A stretch of 64,000 bases of DNA, from positions 95,092-159,091 of the IMG/VR virus record IMGVR_UViG_3300027374_000478. One strand, given 5' to 3'. The notes below the pieces were generated by a model. It searched no databases and was not told where the DNA came from. It saw nothing but the letters and a program-made list of their open reading frames with translations. A program made the position numbers and the translations under genes. This stretch comes from a virus (Duplodnaviria > Caudoviricetes). Positions within the stretch are counted from its first letter, which is position 1. The number at the start of each line of letters is the position of its first letter. Of this stretch, positions 3,038-59,288 are shown piece by piece.

Positions 3038-3058
3038 ATCTTTGAATCTTGCAAAAAA

Positions 3059-3111
3059 TCATCGGGTAGCCAGTAATCAGGAATGCGTCAGCATCCCGTA
3101 GGCAGCCGATG
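3059..3111 (+). other. GC-rich stem-loop downstream of VR (candidate DGR target-recognition hairpin)
   Basis: tcatcgg..ccgatga outer stem with inner ggaatgc/gcatccc hairpin; position matches known DGR hairpins. Confidence 0.6.
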
Positions 3112-3138
3112 AGCGACTGAAAGGAGCGGGGAAAACCA

Positions 3139-3507
3139 GTGAGCGAAGCGAAACTGGATGTTATTGTAAAAGCAATAAATCTTATGGAATATACTATGAC
3201 AATTACATCAAACCGAAAGAGGTATTCAGTTAAGCATTTAACATTGGTAAAACGCATCCAAAATCGCTGTATGGATATATATGAATATTTGCTTGATGCA
3301 AATAGGCTGAAATTGGATACTTCAAAATCGGAACGCCAAGAATTACAAACAAAAGCAATTTCATGTTGTGATAAGTTGTCTTGTTATGTGGAACTTTCTA
3401 TGAAATTGAAATTAATTGGAAGTGATACAGTAGGATATTGGCAGAAACAAATAAATGATGTGAAATATATGAGTATTGCATGGCGTTCAAAAGATAAAGA
3501 GAGATAA
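3139..3507 (+). CDS. avd: DGR accessory variability determinant (four-helix bundle)
   Basis: 122-aa helical protein between VR and TR; C-terminal YWQKQI..VKYMSIAW pattern. Confidence 0.85.
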   Translation: MSEAKLDVIVKAINLMEYTMTITSNRKRYSVKHLTLVKRIQNRCMDIYEYLLDANRLKLDTSKSERQELQTKAISCCDKLSCYVELSMKLKLIGSDTVGYWQKQINDVKYMSIAWRSKDKER

Positions 3508-3528
3508 TTTTAGGTTGTTTGTTGTATG

Positions 3529-3611
3529 ACCCACTATGTTCAGTACGTTAACTCCAATGGCAATGTGAACTACAACGATTGCAACTGGAATGACAAAGGC
3601 GTGCGTCCGTT
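3529..3611 (+). ncRNA. DGR template repeat (TR)
   Basis: AAC/AAT-rich copy of the VR lying between avd and RT. Confidence 0.95.
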
Positions 3612-3730
3612 CTGGATCGGAAGACGAATGAAAGTAAGAGAAACACTGAAATTAGAGTCCCGATATCAAAAGAATAAATAACCTTTCCTGATTCAAAAAT
3701 GTCAGGATAAATACAAAGGAACAAAATACT

Positions 3731-4774
3731 ATGATAGAAGATAAAACAGATTTTGAAAAAGTAGTAGATTTCGGTAATTTATATCAAGCATATTTAAAAT
3801 CTAAATCAGGTAAAGGTTTTTCAAAAAGCAGTCAAAAATTCCAAGTATTAGCTCTTGATGGAATTCATCAAATAAAGAGAAGATTAGAAACTAAAACATA
3901 TCAAGTATCAAAATACAATGAATTTATAATATATGAACCGAAAGAGAGAGTCATTAAAGCATGTTCGTTTGTAGATAAAATTGTACAGCATAGTTTGTGT
4001 GATAATGTACTGATTCCAAGATTGAATAAAGAGTTTATTCAAACAAATTATGCTGGACAGATTGGCAAAGGTACATTGTATGGATTGGATTGCTTAAAAG
4101 CTCAGATGTATCTTGCATATCAGAAGTATGGATATGATTGTTGGATTATAAAAGCTGATGTTAGCAAGTTCTTTTACAATATCAATCACGATATTTTGAA
4201 GGATATTTTGAAATATTTTATAGAAAATAAAGAAGTGTATTGGCTGTGTGAGAAGTTTATTGATAGTACTGAGGGAGTAGGACTTCCATTAGGTAATCAG
4301 GTTAGTCAAGTATTTGCACTTTTATATTTATCAGTGTTAGATCACTTTATCACAGGAGAACTTGGAGTTAAATATTATGGTAGATATATGGATGATTTTT
4401 ATTTGATAGTACAAAATAAAGAATATGCGAAATGGTGTTTAGCAGCTATTTATGAGTTTGTGTATTCATTAGGTCTTGAATTAAACAGTAAGACTCAGGT
4501 CATTCCTTTTAAAAATGGAATCAAATTTTGTGGTTTTCATACATATGTGACTTCAGGTGGTAAAGTAATCCGAAAGCTGAAGAACGAAAATAAACGTGCC
4601 GCTAAAAAGAAATTTAAGAAAATGGTTGGATTAGTGAGGTGTGGAAAACTTAGCAAAGAGAAATTTTATGAGAGTTACAATGCTTGGAAAAATCATATAT
4701 CACATGGCAATTGTGTGAAATTTGGATATGAGATGGATAGATATATAGAAAAATTATTTATAGGAGAAAAATGA
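3731..4774 (+). CDS. DGR reverse transcriptase
   Basis: GLPLGNQVSQ (DGR-type SQ), YGRYMDD, KADVSKFF, FCG motifs; next to TR. Confidence 0.95.
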   Translation: MIEDKTDFEKVVDFGNLYQAYLKSKSGKGFSKSSQKFQVLALDGIHQIKRRLETKTYQVSKYNEFIIYEPKERVIKACSFVDKIVQHSLCDNVLIPRLNKEFIQTNYAGQIGKGTLYGLDCLKAQMYLAYQKYGYDCWIIKADVSKFFYNINHDILKDILKYFIENKEVYWLCEKFIDSTEGVGLPLGNQVSQVFALLYLSVLDHFITGELGVKYYGRYMDDFYLIVQNKEYAKWCLAAIYEFVYSLGLELNSKTQVIPFKNGIKFCGFHTYVTSGGKVIRKLKNENKRAAKKKFKKMVGLVRCGKLSKEKFYESYNAWKNHISHGNCVKFGYEMDRYIEKLFIGEK

Positions 4775-7231: not shown

Positions 7232-7876
7232 ATTAAGGTATTAGAATTATTCGCAGGTACAAGAAGTATTGGTAAAGCATTTGAAGCAAGAGGTCATAAA
7301 GTTTTCAGTGTTGAATGGAATAAAGATTTTGAAAACATCGACCTATATGAAGATATTAGTAAAGTTACAGCACAAGACATTTTAAACAAGTTTGGAAAAC
7401 CTGATGTTATTTGGGCGAGTCCTGACTGTACGACTTTCAGCATTGCGGCAATTAGTCATCACAGAAGAAAGAATCCAGAAACAGGAAGTCTTGAACCTAT
7501 CAGTGATTATGCAAAGTTCTGTGATAAAGTAGATCAACATGTTATTTCGCTTATCAAAGAATTAAATCCTACATACTACTTCATCGAAAATCCCCGTGGT
7601 GGCATGAGAAAGATGTCTTGGATGCAAGACTTACCACGATATACGGTTACATATTGTCAGTATGGCGATGAAAGAATGAAACCTACTGATATCTGGACTA
7701 ATCATCCAAATCCTAAGTTTAAACCCATGTGTAAGAATGGCGATCCATGTCATGTATCTGCTCCAAGGGGAGCTAAAACAGGAACACAGGGACTTAAAGG
7801 TAGTATTGAACGAAGTAAAATTCCATCAGCATTATGTGAGCATATTGTTGATATTTGTGAAAAAAACATTAGGTAA
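7232..7876 (+). CDS. C5 cytosine DNA methyltransferase-like protein (ATT start, or a 1-nt frameshift after ATG 7219)
   Basis: Frame of ORF 7604 extends to 7232: IKVLELFAGTRSIG (motif I), WASPDC (IV), IENP (VI). Confidence 0.8.
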   Translation: MKVLELFAGTRSIGKAFEARGHKVFSVEWNKDFENIDLYEDISKVTAQDILNKFGKPDVIWASPDCTTFSIAAISHHRRKNPETGSLEPISDYAKFCDKVDQHVISLIKELNPTYYFIENPRGGMRKMSWMQDLPRYTVTYCQYGDERMKPTDIWTNHPNPKFKPMCKNGDPCHVSAPRGAKTGTQGLKGSIERSKIPSALCEHIVDICEKNIR

Positions 7877-44643: not shown

Positions 44644-45555
44644 ATAGATAATTATAAGGTATATGCTCATGTCAATAAAATAAATGGTAAATTATATATT
44701 GGTCAAACTGGACAAGAAAATATTAAAGATAGATGGGATAGTGGACACGGGTATAAAAGTTGTGTCGCGTTCAATAGGGCTATAGAAAAATATGGTTGGG
44801 ATAATTTTCAGCATTTAATATTGTTTGAAAATTTATCTCTTCCAATGGCAAATATTATTGAAGCAGAATTGATTAAAAAATATAAAACTACAAATAGTGA
44901 ATTTGGATATAATATTACTTCTGGTGGAATGAATTATAAAATGAGTGCAGCAACAAAAGAAAAAATAAGACAAGCACATTTAGGGAAACATAATTCAGAA
45001 AAATCTAAAGAAAAACTAAGAAGAACATGGGAAATTAAAGGACATCCATTGCAAGGTAAACATCATACAGAAGAAACTAAAAAGAAAATTGGTGATGCCA
45101 ATAGATGGAGATTAAAAACAGAAAAAACTATTGAAAAATTGAGGATTGCAATGACTGGAAGAAAAGGCGCAACACATACAGAAGAAACAAAGCAACTTTT
45201 ATCTGAATTAGCAAAAGAGAGATGTTCTAAACCAGAAGATAATCCGTTTTATGGAAAACGTCATACAGAAGAATCAAAGAGACAAATGAGTGTGGCTCAT
45301 AAAAACATTCCAAAAGAAAAACATGGGAGATATGGTAAATCAGTATCGCAAAATACAATAGAGGCGATTAGGAAGGCACATAATAAACAGGTTTTACAGT
45401 ATGACAAAGAAGGTAAATTTATTGCGCAATATGAATCGGTAGTAGAGGCAGCGAAAGCAATAGGATGCAGTAAAAGTGCAGTTAGTAAATGCTGTACTGG
45501 TATAAATCATACATGCAAAGGATACATATTTAAGTTTATGGAAGAGGTGACGTAA
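44644..45555 (+). CDS. GIY-YIG homing endonuclease with NUMOD3/NUMOD1 repeats (ATA start)
   Basis: Upstream frame gives YKVYAHVNKINGKLYIGQT; repeated GKHHTEETK. Confidence 0.85.
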   Translation: MDNYKVYAHVNKINGKLYIGQTGQENIKDRWDSGHGYKSCVAFNRAIEKYGWDNFQHLILFENLSLPMANIIEAELIKKYKTTNSEFGYNITSGGMNYKMSAATKEKIRQAHLGKHNSEKSKEKLRRTWEIKGHPLQGKHHTEETKKKIGDANRWRLKTEKTIEKLRIAMTGRKGATHTEETKQLLSELAKERCSKPEDNPFYGKRHTEESKRQMSVAHKNIPKEKHGRYGKSVSQNTIEAIRKAHNKQVLQYDKEGKFIAQYESVVEAAKAIGCSKSAVSKCCTGINHTCKGYIFKFMEEVT

Positions 45556-45559
45556 TTAG

Positions 45560-47812
45560 TTGGATAATGATGAATTATATACATTTAAAGTAATAATTAG
45601 TACAGAAAAATATTACAACGAAGACACGACTTGGGGATCATATATAGGTTATACAGATGATGATATACCATTCTGTGTAAGAGAAAGTAATAATTCACTT
45701 ATGGAAGATAATTTTAAGCCCAAGAATTTTTGTAATATTGTTGGTAAAATGCAACAGTTATCTATTGGATGTGAATATCAGATAAAAGCCAAACATGAAT
45801 TTAATAAAACATATGGACATCAATATCAACCAATTACCATATATGCAATAATGCCACAAACAAGGGATATGCAATTACTGTTCTTGAAGACAATTATACC
45901 AGAATGGATGGCAGAAAATTTAATAGAAGCATATCCTAATTTGGTTAATGATGTTGCTAATGGAGAATTAAAAGAAATAGAGTATGACAAAATAAAAGGC
46001 GTAAGAGAAATTACATGGCGAAGAGTTAGAGAAAAAATCATTAATAATTTTTTAATATCTGACATTCTCATAATGCTAAAGCCAGTTGGTGTTACATACA
46101 CAATGATTAAAAAACTTTTATCTGATGAACCAAACCATATTCTCTTAAAAAAACAATTGGAAGATAATATTTATTTGCTATGCAAAATTAACGGTCTTGG
46201 GTTTAAAAAAGTCGATGACTTGGCATTAAAATTGAAGCCAGAACTCATAAATACAACTGAAAGATTGGTTGCGTTTATAAAATACTATTTCACAGATTTG
46301 GGAGAAAGTAGTGGTCATACTTGGTGTTCAGTTAAAATTCTAAAGTCGGCAATAAGTAATAGTGTTCCTGAGTGTGCCGATAAAACGGATTGGTTATTGG
46401 AAAACAATGAGTTTTTACACATATCAGAAGATAGAGTAGGGCTGAAATATTATCACGATATCGAAATGCAGATTTATAATATACTGCTTGAAAAGTCTAA
46501 GAAACAGACGGACATTAATATCTCTGATGAAAGAATAGAACAGGCGATCAGACATGCAGAAGAAGAACAAGGATTTCAATATGTAGTAGAACAGCTTGAC
46601 ACAATCAATAAAAGTTTACATAGAACAATCAGCCTAATAACTGGAAAAGCTGGCACTGGTAAGACTTCCATTATGAGAGCGATTGTAAAAGCATATACAG
46701 AGAACCAATTTACATTAACGGCATCTGCTTTATCAGCTATGGCAGCACAGAGAATAACTGAAGCAACATCATTTCCTGCTATGACGATTCATAGGACATT
46801 AGGATGTAAAGGTTTGAATAAGTTTGATTTTAATAAGGATAATCACTTGATTACAAGCGTTGCATTTCTTGATGAGGGAAGTATGGTAAATGCCAGTTTA
46901 TTTCTCCATTGGTTAGAAGCTATTGATGATAACACAAGAATTATTATTTCTGGTGATCACAAGCAGTTACCGCCAATAGGATTTGGTAATGTATTTTCAG
47001 ATTTGATAGAAATGTTTGATGATACAGTGGTAAGCAAATTAGTGAAACCGATGAGACAAGCTGAGAAATCTGGTATTTTAGTAGACGCAAATCTAATCCG
47101 TGAAAATATCAACCCTATAACTGAAAAGTTACAACCGAGAATTATTCATGGTGAGTTACAAGATATGTATTATATGTTCCGTACAAATAGACAGTCATTG
47201 TTTGATATTGCAGTTAAGACATTCCTAAAATCAGTAGAATCTGATGGAATTGATAATGTTGTTATTGCAGTTCCACGAAGAAAAGATTGCTTGAATAGTA
47301 CAAATGAGTTAAATAAAACGATTCAGGAAAAGTTGTTAGGAGATGTATTGCAAAGTATATCTGGTTTTGAGATGACATTTAAATTGGGTGCTAAAGTAAT
47401 GCAGACAGTAAATGATTACGATAAGAATGTGTTTAATGGAGAAATAGGATATATAACAGAAATCAGTGAGAGACAAAATGGTAAAAAGAAAGAAGAGTAT
47501 TGCGTAGTAACATATACTGATATTTTTGGTAAGGATAAATTGATTGAGTACACAAAGAAAGAACTGGCAGCTTTGGATCTTGCTTATGCGATGACGGTAC
47601 ATAAGTTACAGGGAGCCGGTAGAAAGATTGTGATTGGTATTATTGATAATACGCACCATCAGCTTTTAGACAACTGTATGTTATATACACTACTGACAAG
47701 AGCAAAGAAGAGATGCTTATTATTGGCAGAGCCACAAGCATTTTTACAGTGTATTCGCACAAGTCATAATAAACGGAACACATGGATGATGTTAGAAGAA
47801 AAAGTAGCATAA
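45560..47812 (+). CDS. recD2: RecD2-like SF1 helicase
   Basis: GKAGTGKT, LDEGSM, GDHKQLPPIG, AYAMTVHKLQG, YTLLTRAK. Confidence 0.9.
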   Translation: MDNDELYTFKVIISTEKYYNEDTTWGSYIGYTDDDIPFCVRESNNSLMEDNFKPKNFCNIVGKMQQLSIGCEYQIKAKHEFNKTYGHQYQPITIYAIMPQTRDMQLLFLKTIIPEWMAENLIEAYPNLVNDVANGELKEIEYDKIKGVREITWRRVREKIINNFLISDILIMLKPVGVTYTMIKKLLSDEPNHILLKKQLEDNIYLLCKINGLGFKKVDDLALKLKPELINTTERLVAFIKYYFTDLGESSGHTWCSVKILKSAISNSVPECADKTDWLLENNEFLHISEDRVGLKYYHDIEMQIYNILLEKSKKQTDINISDERIEQAIRHAEEEQGFQYVVEQLDTINKSLHRTISLITGKAGTGKTSIMRAIVKAYTENQFTLTASALSAMAAQRITEATSFPAMTIHRTLGCKGLNKFDFNKDNHLITSVAFLDEGSMVNASLFLHWLEAIDDNTRIIISGDHKQLPPIGFGNVFSDLIEMFDDTVVSKLVKPMRQAEKSGILVDANLIRENINPITEKLQPRIIHGELQDMYYMFRTNRQSLFDIAVKTFLKSVESDGIDNVVIAVPRRKDCLNSTNELNKTIQEKLLGDVLQSISGFEMTFKLGAKVMQTVNDYDKNVFNGEIGYITEISERQNGKKKEEYCVVTYTDIFGKDKLIEYTKKELAALDLAYAMTVHKLQGAGRKIVIGIIDNTHHQLLDNCMLYTLLTRAKKRCLLLAEPQAFLQCIRTSHNKRNTWMMLEEKVA

Positions 47813-48897: not shown

Positions 48898-49024
48898 TAG
48901 TATTACCCCTTAGATATGATAGGAAAATTATACCACAAATGCAGAATGTAGTAAATATAAAAACATTTGATTGGAACAACGCCAAATTAAATGAAAGATA
49001 GGTTTCAACAGTAAAAACAAAACG

Positions 49025-55769: not shown

Positions 55770-56006
55770 TTGCAGAAAATTAAGATTAAACTAACAACAC
55801 CAGAGTTTATTGCAGAATTTATTAATACTTGTTCAAGGTATGATTGTGACATTAATTTATATGATGGAAGAAATATTATTGATGCAAAATCGCTAATTGG
55901 AGTATTCGCTATTGCACAAGGGAAACCATTGGAAGTACAAGCAATCAGTTCTGACGAAAGTGTTATTTCATCGTTTATCGAAGATATGAGAAAGTTTGAG
56001 GTGTAA
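55770..56006 (+). CDS. HPr-like protein 1
   Basis: IDAKSLIGV Ser46 motif; no His15. Confidence 0.8.
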   Translation: MQKIKIKLTTPEFIAEFINTCSRYDCDINLYDGRNIIDAKSLIGVFAIAQGKPLEVQAISSDESVISSFIEDMRKFEV

Positions 56007-56013
56007 AAGTAGA

Positions 56014-56835
56014 ATGATAAAAGCAGATGAATATATGATTGAAACTATTAAGCACATTTTGAATGATGGCTATAAAGATGTAAATCCAAGACCACATTAT
56101 GAGGATGGAACACCAGCACATACATTGTCAGTAAATGGTGTTGTTCATACATATGACATTAGCAAAAATGAGTTTCCAATTACTACATTAAGACCAATTT
56201 ATTTTAAAAAAGCAATTGGCGAAATCCTTTGGATATATCAGGACGAAAGCAATAATCTTAATTTATTAAGAGATAAATATGGAGTAGATTGGTGGGATTC
56301 TTGGGATATTGGTGATAGAACAATCGGTTCATGTTATGGAGAAACTGTCAGAAAACATAATCTCGTAAAACCTATTTTGGATGAAATAATCAATGATCCA
56401 TATGGGAGAAGGCATATTATCAATTTATGGCAGAAAGAAGATTTTAAAAATCCTCACGGATTAAAACCGTGTTGCTATCAAACACAGTTCTTAGTTCGTG
56501 GAGAATATATTGATATGATTATGTATCAGCGCAGTTCTGATTGGTTGACAGCAGGTAATATTAATCAGATGCAATATGTAGCATTAATGATGATGGTAGC
56601 AAGACATTGTGGGTATAAGTCTGGAGTATTCACGCATTTTATTGCTAACCAGCAAATTTATGATAGACATGTAGATAATGCATTAGAAATGTTAAAAAGA
56701 GAACCGATAGACTGCAACCCTGTATTAGAGTTGAATCCTGATAAAAAAGATTTTTACTCAATTACGGTTGATGATTTTGTTTTAAAAGGATATGAGTCGA
56801 ATAAGCCACAATTAAAATTTGAATTGGGAATTTAA
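56014..56835 (+). CDS. thyA: thymidylate synthase
   Basis: GRRHII, LKPCC, YQRSSD, QIYDRH. Confidence 0.93.
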   Translation: MIKADEYMIETIKHILNDGYKDVNPRPHYEDGTPAHTLSVNGVVHTYDISKNEFPITTLRPIYFKKAIGEILWIYQDESNNLNLLRDKYGVDWWDSWDIGDRTIGSCYGETVRKHNLVKPILDEIINDPYGRRHIINLWQKEDFKNPHGLKPCCYQTQFLVRGEYIDMIMYQRSSDWLTAGNINQMQYVALMMMVARHCGYKSGVFTHFIANQQIYDRHVDNALEMLKREPIDCNPVLELNPDKKDFYSITVDDFVLKGYESNKPQLKFELGI

Positions 56836-56852
56836 AAGGAGAAGATACATAT

Positions 56853-56948
56853 ATGATTATTGTTTTACTAGGGGCTTCCGGATCAGGGAAGTCAACAATT
56901 GAAAATGAACTGGCGAAACATCATGGCTTTGAAAAGATTATTTTATAG
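56853..56948 (+). pseudogene. Guanylate-kinase-like N-terminal fragment truncated at a boundary site
   Basis: MIIVLLGASGSGKSTIENELAKHHGFEKIIL*; site TGAAA-AGATTA-TTTTA at 56930 spans the break. Confidence 0.75.
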
Positions 56949-56965
56949 GAGGGAAGATTACACTT

Positions 56966-57496
56966 TTGGATAAACGTGTTTTTATAATCAATGGTTCTGG
57001 AGGTGTCGGGAAGGACACCTTTGTAGAGCTAGTATCAACAGAACTGAATAACAAACTCAAAAAATTTCATACGGTTGTTAATTTTTCATCTGTAGATAAG
57101 GTAAAAGAAATAGCGAAAAAAATTGGATGGAATGGAAAGAAAACTGAAAGAGACAGAAAATTTTTATCAGATTTAAAATTGTTAACAAGTGAATATTGTG
57201 ATATGTCTTTTAAGAGTGTAAAAAATAAGGTAAATGAATTTTTTGAAGACAAAGAAAGTAGATTCTTATTTTTGCATATCCGTGAACCAAAAGAGATCCA
57301 AAGGGCAGCAAAAGAGTTTAATGCAAAAACAATTTTAATAGTACGGGATGCGATAAAGCACATCACCTCTAATATGGCAGACGAGAATGTTTTTAATTAT
57401 GAATATGATTATATAATTGAAAACAATGGAACAAAAGAAGAGTTAAATAATAAAGCAAAAGATTTTGTGAAAGGAGAGACAGTTAATGAAGCGTAG
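56966..57496 (+). CDS. P-loop nucleotide kinase-like protein
   Basis: INGSGGVGKDTF, HIREP.E, YDYIIENNG. Confidence 0.75.
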   Translation: MDKRVFIINGSGGVGKDTFVELVSTELNNKLKKFHTVVNFSSVDKVKEIAKKIGWNGKKTERDRKFLSDLKLLTSEYCDMSFKSVKNKVNEFFEDKESRFLFLHIREPKEIQRAAKEFNAKTILIVRDAIKHITSNMADENVFNYEYDYIIENNGTKEELNNKAKDFVKGETVNEA

Positions 57497-57944
57497 TATA
57501 TATCTTGCTGGTGCAATGGGCTGCTATTTTAACACAGAACAACACGGTTATCCTAAAAAATGGAGAGACCATGTAAAAAGATATGTAAAGAGATTCTATA
57601 GTGATATCACAATCGTATCTCCTACAGATTATTATGAAATAGGTAAAAATTATCATAAAACTGAATCAGAGGTTATGCGATTTGATCTTAGGATGGTTAG
57701 AGAGGCAGATATTGTATTATGCAATCTAAGAGATCTACATGCTTCTATCGGAACTTCAGATGAAATTTTGTATGCGTTTATTAGCGGAAAACCTGTAATA
57801 GGATTCTTAGAAGATGAGTCAGCAGTAAAAAATATTCATCCATGGAAAGTTGAGCAAATCGATAGAATTGAAACTGGAGAAAAAGCACTGGAAAATGCAT
57901 TAAGTTACATTTATAGATACTATATAGATAGATACAATTATTAA
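57486..57944 (+). CDS. nucleoside 2-deoxyribosyltransferase-like protein
   Basis: IYLAG, DL..V..ADIV, SIGTSDE...A...GKPVI. Confidence 0.8.
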   Translation: MKRSIYLAGAMGCYFNTEQHGYPKKWRDHVKRYVKRFYSDITIVSPTDYYEIGKNYHKTESEVMRFDLRMVREADIVLCNLRDLHASIGTSDEILYAFISGKPVIGFLEDESAVKNIHPWKVEQIDRIETGEKALENALSYIYRYYIDRYNY

Positions 57945-58792: not shown

Positions 58793-59041
58793 ATGGGAAA
58801 TACAATTAAAGTAAAACTGGATAGTATAGAAAATGCACAGAAATTTGTAGAAATATGCAACCAATTTGAAAATATAGATATTGATTATATTGTTGGAAAA
58901 TATACTGTTGATGCTAAATCTATTATGGGCGTTTTATCCACATCATTAGGACGTGTAGCAAGTGTGAATTTTAATAAAGGAAATCAAAAATCAATTGATT
59001 TGTTTTGTGGTTTAATTAGCAATTGGATTATGGGGGAATAG
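58793..59041 (+). CDS. HPr-like protein 2
   Basis: VDAKSIMGVLS; no His15. Confidence 0.8.
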   Translation: MGNTIKVKLDSIENAQKFVEICNQFENIDIDYIVGKYTVDAKSIMGVLSTSLGRVASVNFNKGNQKSIDLFCGLISNWIMGE

Positions 59042-59045
59042 GAGT

Positions 59046-59288
59046 ATGAGAATAAAATTAAATACAGTAAGTGATGTAAATAGTTTTGTTAATGCCAGTA
59101 CAAAGTACTATGAAGGTGACATTGACGTAGAGCAAGGAAGGCAAATTATAGACGGTAAAAGTATTCTAGGGATATTTAGTTTGAATTTAATGAAACCACT
59201 AGAAGTCAATATAAACACTGATAATGTAAATACGGAACGTGATTTTTATAATTTTATCAAGAAATGGGAAGTGAATGATGTGGATTGA
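59046..59288 (+). CDS. HPr-like protein 3
   Basis: IDGKSILGIFSL; no His15. Confidence 0.8.
   Translation: MRIKLNTVSDVNSFVNASTKYYEGDIDVEQGRQIIDGKSILGIFSLNLMKPLEVNINTDNVNTERDFYNFIKKWEVNDVD

Follow-up and report, generated by a model that had tools for sequence, protein, structure and literature searches.

We found that the short open reading frame at 56853..56948 (+ strand) of the window, the 64-kb stretch analysed here, is the 5′ stub of a guanylate-kinase-family gene, and that codons 32–188 of this kinase have been replaced by a non-orthologous cassette carrying a dNMP-kinase-like gene. The left joint of the replacement lies at the 3′ edge of an in-frame look-alike of a palindrome, WTGAAA-N6-TTTCAW, that marks recombination joints across the genomes of these phages. 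We consider the best explanation, with a probability of about 0.7, to be that the kinase was replaced after codon 31, with the left crossover at the palindrome look-alike inside the gene and the right one at the neighbouring ndt gene. As an in-gene look-alike of an intergenic palindrome turned joint, the stub is a small and unusually clean natural experiment, and it touches a question open since the modular theory of phage evolution, namely sequence-guided versus selection-filtered mosaicism.

The window forms the right-hand end (64 kb) of the provirus record G000, which is 159,091 bp long. Relatives carrying the kinase or the stub were found with degenerate DNA patterns in IMG/VR, GTDB genomes and metagenomes. 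The whole relatives G001 (162,559 bp; stub and dNMP-kinase-like gene) and G002 (150,195 bp, 89% complete; intact kinase) were aligned pairwise with G000 and with each other by blastn. No close relative of the window was found in the GenBank phage collection, where only thyA matched (63–85%). The same stub is also present in Eubacterium plexicaudatum ASF492, Roseburia sp. 1XD42-69 and mouse-gut MAGs, therefore the hosts are Lachnospiraceae, and the phages are large temperate prophages of Firmicutes. The two named strains offer hosts in which the proposal can be tested.

Remnant of a guanylate kinase gene

The stub follows directly on thyA (thymidylate synthase, 279 aa; 55996..56835, + strand; PF00303, E = 3.4e-64), which ends with TAA. 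Its start is well formed, as an earlier note on this sequence had described, with a Shine-Dalgarno (SD) sequence AAGGAG at 56836..56841 (+ strand) and an ATG at 56853, followed by 31 codons (MIIVLLGASGSGKSTIENELAKHHGFEKIIL) and a TAG stop at 56946–56948. The stub encodes strand beta1, a P-loop (GASGSGKST) that fits the guanylate kinase pattern GxxGxGK(S/T), and the start of helix 1; over these residues it is 97–100% identical to intact phage homologues. Its Pfam match (PF00625) is limited to residues 3–24 (E = 0.0071, below the cut-off), and with the frame ending after codon 31, the GMP-binding SYTTR segment and the full domain of roughly 180 residues are lacking.

Intact kinases of 186–196 aa are encoded by ten related phage or prophage alleles, which have the first 30–31 codons of the stub and then go on with SYTTRQPR (...FEKIISYTTRQPR...). 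The intact form matches PF00625 over model positions 5–181 of 182 (E = 1.5e-20) and phrog_1815 (E = 3.9e-40). These relatives bore out two predictions of the earlier note, that the gene would continue with S(Y/H)TTR and that a TCA serine codon at this point would complete the palindrome: the perfect form TGAAAAGATTATTTCA occurs in six intact genes and in several stubs. Since 6/10 intact alleles carry this perfect form in frame and the other four have one mismatch (a TCG serine codon, or Lys for Glu), the in-gene site is a by-product of coding for FEKIIS and no conserved signal.

No trace of kinase residues 32–188 was detected by tblastn in the whole genomes of G000 or G001. A split gene was rejected, the rest of the kinase being nowhere else in the genome. 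A read-through or frameshift fusion was rejected from the sequence, in which the next open reading frame is in a different frame and has its own P-loop.

With a good SD sequence, an ATG and a stop codon that overlaps the next SD sequence, the stub could have been kept as useful, either as a micro-protein or as a translated leader that supplies the weak TTG start downstream with ribosomes. Over the first 30 codons of the first 11 alleles (7 truncated, 4 intact), 22/25 variable sites are synonymous, which taken alone suggests selection on the peptide, and conservation is higher in the stub than in the downstream gene. However, truncated alleles are interspersed among intact ones; the nearest allele to that of the window is the intact L142, which shares Lys22 (1 nt in 90 apart; 91/93 identical over the stub). 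Since stub alleles are nested in this way, the synonymous pattern was inherited from functional genes. Furthermore, the stub has lost its start codon in L027, carries a frameshift that destroys the P-loop in L028, and lacks the SD sequence and the first six codons in L143. Because it is decayed or startless in these alleles, the stub itself is dispensable, and we regard its retention for a use of its own as highly doubtful.

Replacement of the kinase and position of the joints

The last codons of the stub form the palindrome match TGAAAAGATTATTTTA at 56930..56945, with a T on both flanks, and this runs directly into TAGGAGG; both elements are where the earlier note had placed them. The SD sequence of the incoming kinase (AGGAGG, 56947..56952, + strand) overlaps the stub stop codon and leads to a TTG start at 56966, from which the 176-aa dNMP-kinase-like P-loop gene extends to 57496 (+ strand). 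Its 3′ end overlaps the start of ndt (nucleoside 2-deoxyribosyltransferase; 57486..57944, + strand; PF05014, E = 5e-10). The match of the incoming gene to phrog_139 (E = 7.5e-12) covers residues 84–169 only, and its match to PF21448 (1.4e-4) scores 22 bits against a cut-off of 27.1; a P-loop, GSGGVGKDT, is present. In intact-kinase genomes, the kinase abuts ndt (G002, G003), and its stop codon overlaps the ndt start in L018 and L021. Homology of the window to L018 and L021 ends at 56943–56947 and resumes at 57498–57501, therefore 56946..57497 (+ strand) stands in for kinase codons 32–188. The event was thus a replacement by a non-orthologous cassette and not a deletion. Of the earlier proposal that a chance site inside the gene had recombined with a downstream one, the in-gene crossover agrees with the joint at the site edge, while the deletion toward a downstream site does not stand.

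A deletion would still be conceivable if an ancestor had carried the intact kinase and the dNMP-kinase-like gene in tandem and recombination between two sites had removed the 3′ part of the kinase, as the earlier note supposed. The left joint does lie at a site, the spacing of site, SD sequence and start is that of true intergenic sites, and L001 and L014 have longer leaders, with about 12 nt between site and SD sequence, that resemble the downstream flanks of true sites. Yet no tandem arrangement occurs in about 30 loci with kinase or stub, and the two genes were never together in the loci and records examined; 80 related loci were returned for the dNMP-kinase-like gene, which was not found in the three intact-kinase records searched (G002, G003, G004). 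In addition, the spacer at the joint is the kinase's own, with nothing of a second site visible. We therefore regard the tandem route as very unlikely. A search for a free-standing site ahead of the orthologues of the 56966 gene, and ahead of those of the second kinase type described below, found none. These orthologues come from distant phages that lack the motif (1 perfect site in 349 kb), and the result therefore says little about the partner site that the earlier note proposed.

In all truncated alleles, identity to the intact kinase breaks off no more than about 3 nt from the 3′ end of TGAAAAGATTATTT(C/T)A, at the edge of the 16-bp site, as the earlier note had anticipated. Over a similarly short distance, about 3 nt past TTT(C/T/G)A, the truncated alleles also part from one another. 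After the spacer, intact genes read TTTC(A/G)TA(C/T)AC. The dNMP-kinase-like gene, which comes with three different leaders, is preceded by TTTCATATAGTAAATAACGGAGG in L014, TTTCATGATATAAATACAGGAGG in L001 and TTTCATAACCAAACAAAGGAGG in L143, and by TTT(C/T)ATAGGAGG in L002, L004 and the window. A second guanylate-kinase type (31% identical) follows TTTTATAGAAG... and TTTTAAGGAATATGGAGG in L012, L123, L141 and L145, and a 72-aa open reading frame follows TTTGATTGGTAAAT... in L009 and L137. These three unrelated downstream cassettes join within about 5 nt of one another. The stub of L143 (700–830) is cut at both ends: unrelated sequence replaces its SD sequence and codons 1–6, a left joint that lies inside the stub and not at the site, and a perfect palindrome then precedes the dNMP-kinase-like gene.

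The clustering of joints bears on a second explanation, mosaicism of the Hendrix type, in which illegitimate swaps occur at random, working products survive, and the palindrome is coincidental or itself selected. The 20 nt between the end of the site and the TTG fall within the usual 11–34 nt, a product that could be favoured, and the right joint, at the ndt gene start, is without a palindrome. However, the whole ~110-nt stub is dispensable, therefore joints would have been possible anywhere in it, and three unrelated cassettes nevertheless converge on the same few nucleotides. We infer that the site guided the crossover, and this clustering is the strongest local argument for it. Independent illegitimate joints at the kinase site may number as few as two or three, because all dNMP-kinase joints could share one event. 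The motif before the incoming gene also decays in L027, L028 and the window, where it is accordingly not under strong selection.

Under the replacement that we favour, an ancestral prophage would have had its kinase beyond codon 31 swapped for a dNMP-kinase-like gene with its own ribosome-binding site. The left crossover would have fallen at the 3′ edge of the look-alike that the FEKIIS codons form in frame, and the right joint at the start of the conserved ndt gene. The palindrome would be a preferred crossover point between related phages, and the kinase would have been cut for happening to hold a copy. After this first illegitimate event, stub and ndt could have served as arms for ordinary homologous exchange with intact-gene phages. 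Between the window and G001, nucleotide identity is 89.0% in thyA, 92.7% in the stub, 76.3% in the dNMP-kinase-like gene and 77.6% in ndt; likewise, L017 and L123 have near-identical stubs followed by second-type kinases that are only 63% identical to one another. Stub and ndt are probably the left and right homology arms, which would explain the near-identity of the stub to intact alleles beside a deeply diverged right-hand gene.

This nucleotide-metabolism locus presents a case of non-orthologous displacement among a guanylate kinase, a dNMP-kinase-like gene and a second guanylate-kinase type, which adjoin interchangeable ThyA and ThyX. The slot upstream of the kinase holds three different genes: thyA in the window (55996–56835) and G001, a 225-aa gene presumed to be ThyX-like (L017:5384–6061, L021:4400–5077), and a third gene of 231–243 aa (L019, L014). 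In G001, a gene judged by eye to be dihydrofolate-reductase-like (L001:3384–3887) lies between thyA and the stub, and its ends are without the palindrome.

The palindrome marks recombination joints genome-wide

The element is an 18-bp palindrome, WTGAAA-N6-TTTCAW, present in 11–18 perfect copies per genome against about 1 expected (11, 18 and 14 in the three whole genomes). The window holds 5 perfect sites (0.42 expected) and 27 one-mismatch matches (12.3 expected); its own one-mismatch site in the kinase is, alone, not significant. All 43 perfect sites have A or T at the flanking positions −1 and +16. In accessory regions of the genome, a site usually precedes an SD sequence by 0–22 nt; for about 26/43, an SD sequence (+0 to +22) and a start codon (+11 to +34) come next. 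With 20 nt between it and the TTG, the kinase site is laid out like these true sites. Within the spacers of the 43 perfect sites, T occupies the last position in 3/43 and A the first in 12/43, an asymmetry that may point to a constraint on one strand, such as one acting on the mRNA.

We then counted the ends of homology blocks (at least 84% identity) that lie within 4 nt of a site. Between G000 and G001, 7/38 block ends were near a site, compared with 0.38 under a uniform null and 1.9 under a gene-start null (p about 0.002). The counts for G000–G002 (4/36; 0.36 expected) and G001–G002 (6/48; 0.52 expected) were set against the uniform null only. In the three genome comparisons, block ends near sites were about 10 times above chance. 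Site alignments showed homology starting or stopping at an arm edge or inside the spacer; at G000:105040 the left flank is common to G002 and the right flank to G001, and at G000:88079 the three genomes have three different right flanks. The motif thus marks recombination joints genome-wide, in agreement with the earlier view that it is recombinogenic. The other half of that view, that it is not an operator, does not follow: an operator or expression role is compatible with the stub, which shows that a site was used as a joint.

These counts also weigh on random illegitimate swapping followed by selection. A one-mismatch site such as that of the window is expected 12.3 times per window, most homology-block ends are not at sites, and neither the dihydrofolate-reductase indel of G001 nor most simple indels between genomes have one; among five simple indels in the three genomes, none has sites at both ends. 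Yet the excess of joints persists against the gene-start null (7 versus 1.9), with two more pairs in excess of the uniform null, and together with the clustering of unrelated cassettes at the stub this makes random swapping unlikely as the full account. The evidence instead argues that a defined short sequence guides mosaicism in these Lachnospiraceae prophages, in addition to the filtering by selection.

A one-mismatch site, CGAAAGTGTTATTTCA at 55955..55970, falls within the 3′-terminal part of an HPr-like gene and forms the left edge of a conserved island of ~50 nt before thymidylate synthase genes in six relatives. Homology of the window to G001, L017, L018, L019 and L021 starts at 55956–55958, and to L009 at 55932. 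Of the HPr-like gene only this 3′ piece is left in G001; the arrangement mirrors that of the kinase, which lies 1 kb downstream.

Six relatives retain the HPr-like 3′ fragment (...SVISSFIEDMRKFEV; window 55955–56007, L001:2437–2544), which starts at a palindrome site, ahead of either thyA or thyX. It is the second case of a gene fragment produced at a site, and G001 has it attached downstream of another, different HPr-like gene. Paralogous HPr-like genes of 78–85 aa lie in the window at 55770–56006, 58793–59041 and 59046–59288 (PF00381, 1.1e-5 for 55770–56003) and elsewhere at L001:2256–2492 and L017:5097–5333 and 7375–7632, often beside mosaic joints in the nucleotide-metabolism region.

Candidate machinery, known systems and neighbouring genes

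The 5-6-5 geometry of the palindrome would be appropriate for a tyrosine-recombinase core or for a protein that binds DNA as a dimer. The sites could be core sites of an integron-like, site-specific phage recombinase that hit the kinase off-target. Inverted arms around a 6-bp spacer resemble tyrosine-recombinase core sites, joints fall at either edge of spacer or arms, and G000 encodes, at 84250–85245 and 46508–47539, two tyrosine recombinases with apparent catalytic residues, one of them in a block that starts at a perfect site. However, this 331-aa enzyme, shared with G001 (86% identity), is absent from G002, and the counterparts of the other in G001 and G002 are only 21–23% identical to it, while all three genomes share one and the same motif. 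No recombinase conserved across G000, G001 and G002 was identified, a negative weakened by the 89% completeness of G002. Neither a serine recombinase nor a pair of site-cassette-site versus single empty site was found, the spacers vary freely, which would hinder strand exchange by a tyrosine recombinase, and the arms are only 6 bp long. Off-target action of such an enzyme is on balance improbable.

It is likewise doubtful that WTGAAA-N6-TTTCAW is the recognition site of a dedicated, protein-mediated system of cassette exchange, comparable to integrons, in large Lachnospiraceae prophages. If it were, the kinase stub and the HPr-like 3′ fragment would be off-target events at in-gene look-alikes. 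We prefer short-homology recombination, or recombination at protein-bound sites, of the kind described for PeSLs, over a dedicated site-specific recombinase; the conserved arm of only 5–6 bp offers very little homology for annealing-based recombination.

Other functions of the sites were considered. No sigma-70 promoter- or terminator-like match was present at the sites at 48992, 55955 and 56930, and the region held 68 against 75 expected; sigma-70 promoters or terminators at the sites were rejected, with no match and no enrichment. Rfam gave no match in the window, and hairpins at the sites reached −4.7 to −5.6 kcal/mol at best, with none at the kinase site; an RNA element was rejected on these grounds. 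YonO of SPbeta starts one late operon from a single start site. About 40 SD-adjacent sites would be a poor fit to a promoter of the phage's own YonO-type RNA polymerase, which argues weakly against that role.

Conserved linker or boundary sequences lie between the modules of lambdoid phages and belong to Botstein's modular theory. Boundary sequences have reportedly been described for HK620 and related phages. As there, short shared boundary sequences act here as crossover points, with alternative non-orthologous genes at one locus; unlike there, a defined palindrome is repeated dozens of times within one genome, and a look-alike inside coding sequence has been used.

The closest behaviour is that of PeSLs (PMC2839356; Comeau et al. 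2014, PMC4122927), likewise short conserved motifs that recur 5′ of genes across the variable region of a large phage genome, where insertions or replacements between close relatives are joined at motif copies, as they are here. In contrast, PeSLs consist of a sigma-70-like promoter and a terminator stem-loop, whereas the palindrome has neither at the sites examined, its hairpin is weak or absent, and the phages are temperate and of Firmicutes. The sites are thus not PeSLs in composition, though PeSL-like in behaviour.

A second comparison is the SPBRE of Bacillus prophage SPbeta, a repeated 15-bp element bound by MrpR (YopR), a repressor with a tyrosine-recombinase fold; it serves as an operator in some ten promoter regions (Kohm et al. 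2023, PMC10516654). Both are short elements repeated at many intergenic positions of a large Firmicutes prophage with a YonO-type RNA polymerase. The SPBRE lies in promoter regions and is not reported to have a role in recombination, whereas the sites here adjoin SD sequences. The XerC-like protein of G000 has no relative in SPbeta detectable by tblastn.

This protein, of 331 aa with apparent catalytic Arg, His-x-x-Arg, His and Tyr, is encoded upstream of the window in a block (L111, G000:83534–85262) that starts exactly at a perfect site. The block also encodes two proteins of 83 and 84 aa, apparently an antitoxin and its toxin, which by eye resemble PhdYeFM and YoeB.

Endonuclease-like genes are also present in these phages. 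Compared with G001, the window has a 909-nt insertion at 44645–45554, its ends without the palindrome, between a 1105-aa gene resembling DNA polymerase III alpha and a 750-aa helicase-like gene. The open reading frame at 44821–45555 (244 aa) has repeated GKHHTEETKKKI-type motifs and appears by eye to be a free-standing homing endonuclease. HNH-type endonuclease-like frames, also recognized by eye, lie directly upstream of the kinase in L018 (4228–4677) and likewise in the L002 group, whose members bear the stub; in L005 one (3055–4008) precedes the dNMP-kinase-like gene. Homing-endonuclease activity may add to exchange at the kinase locus.
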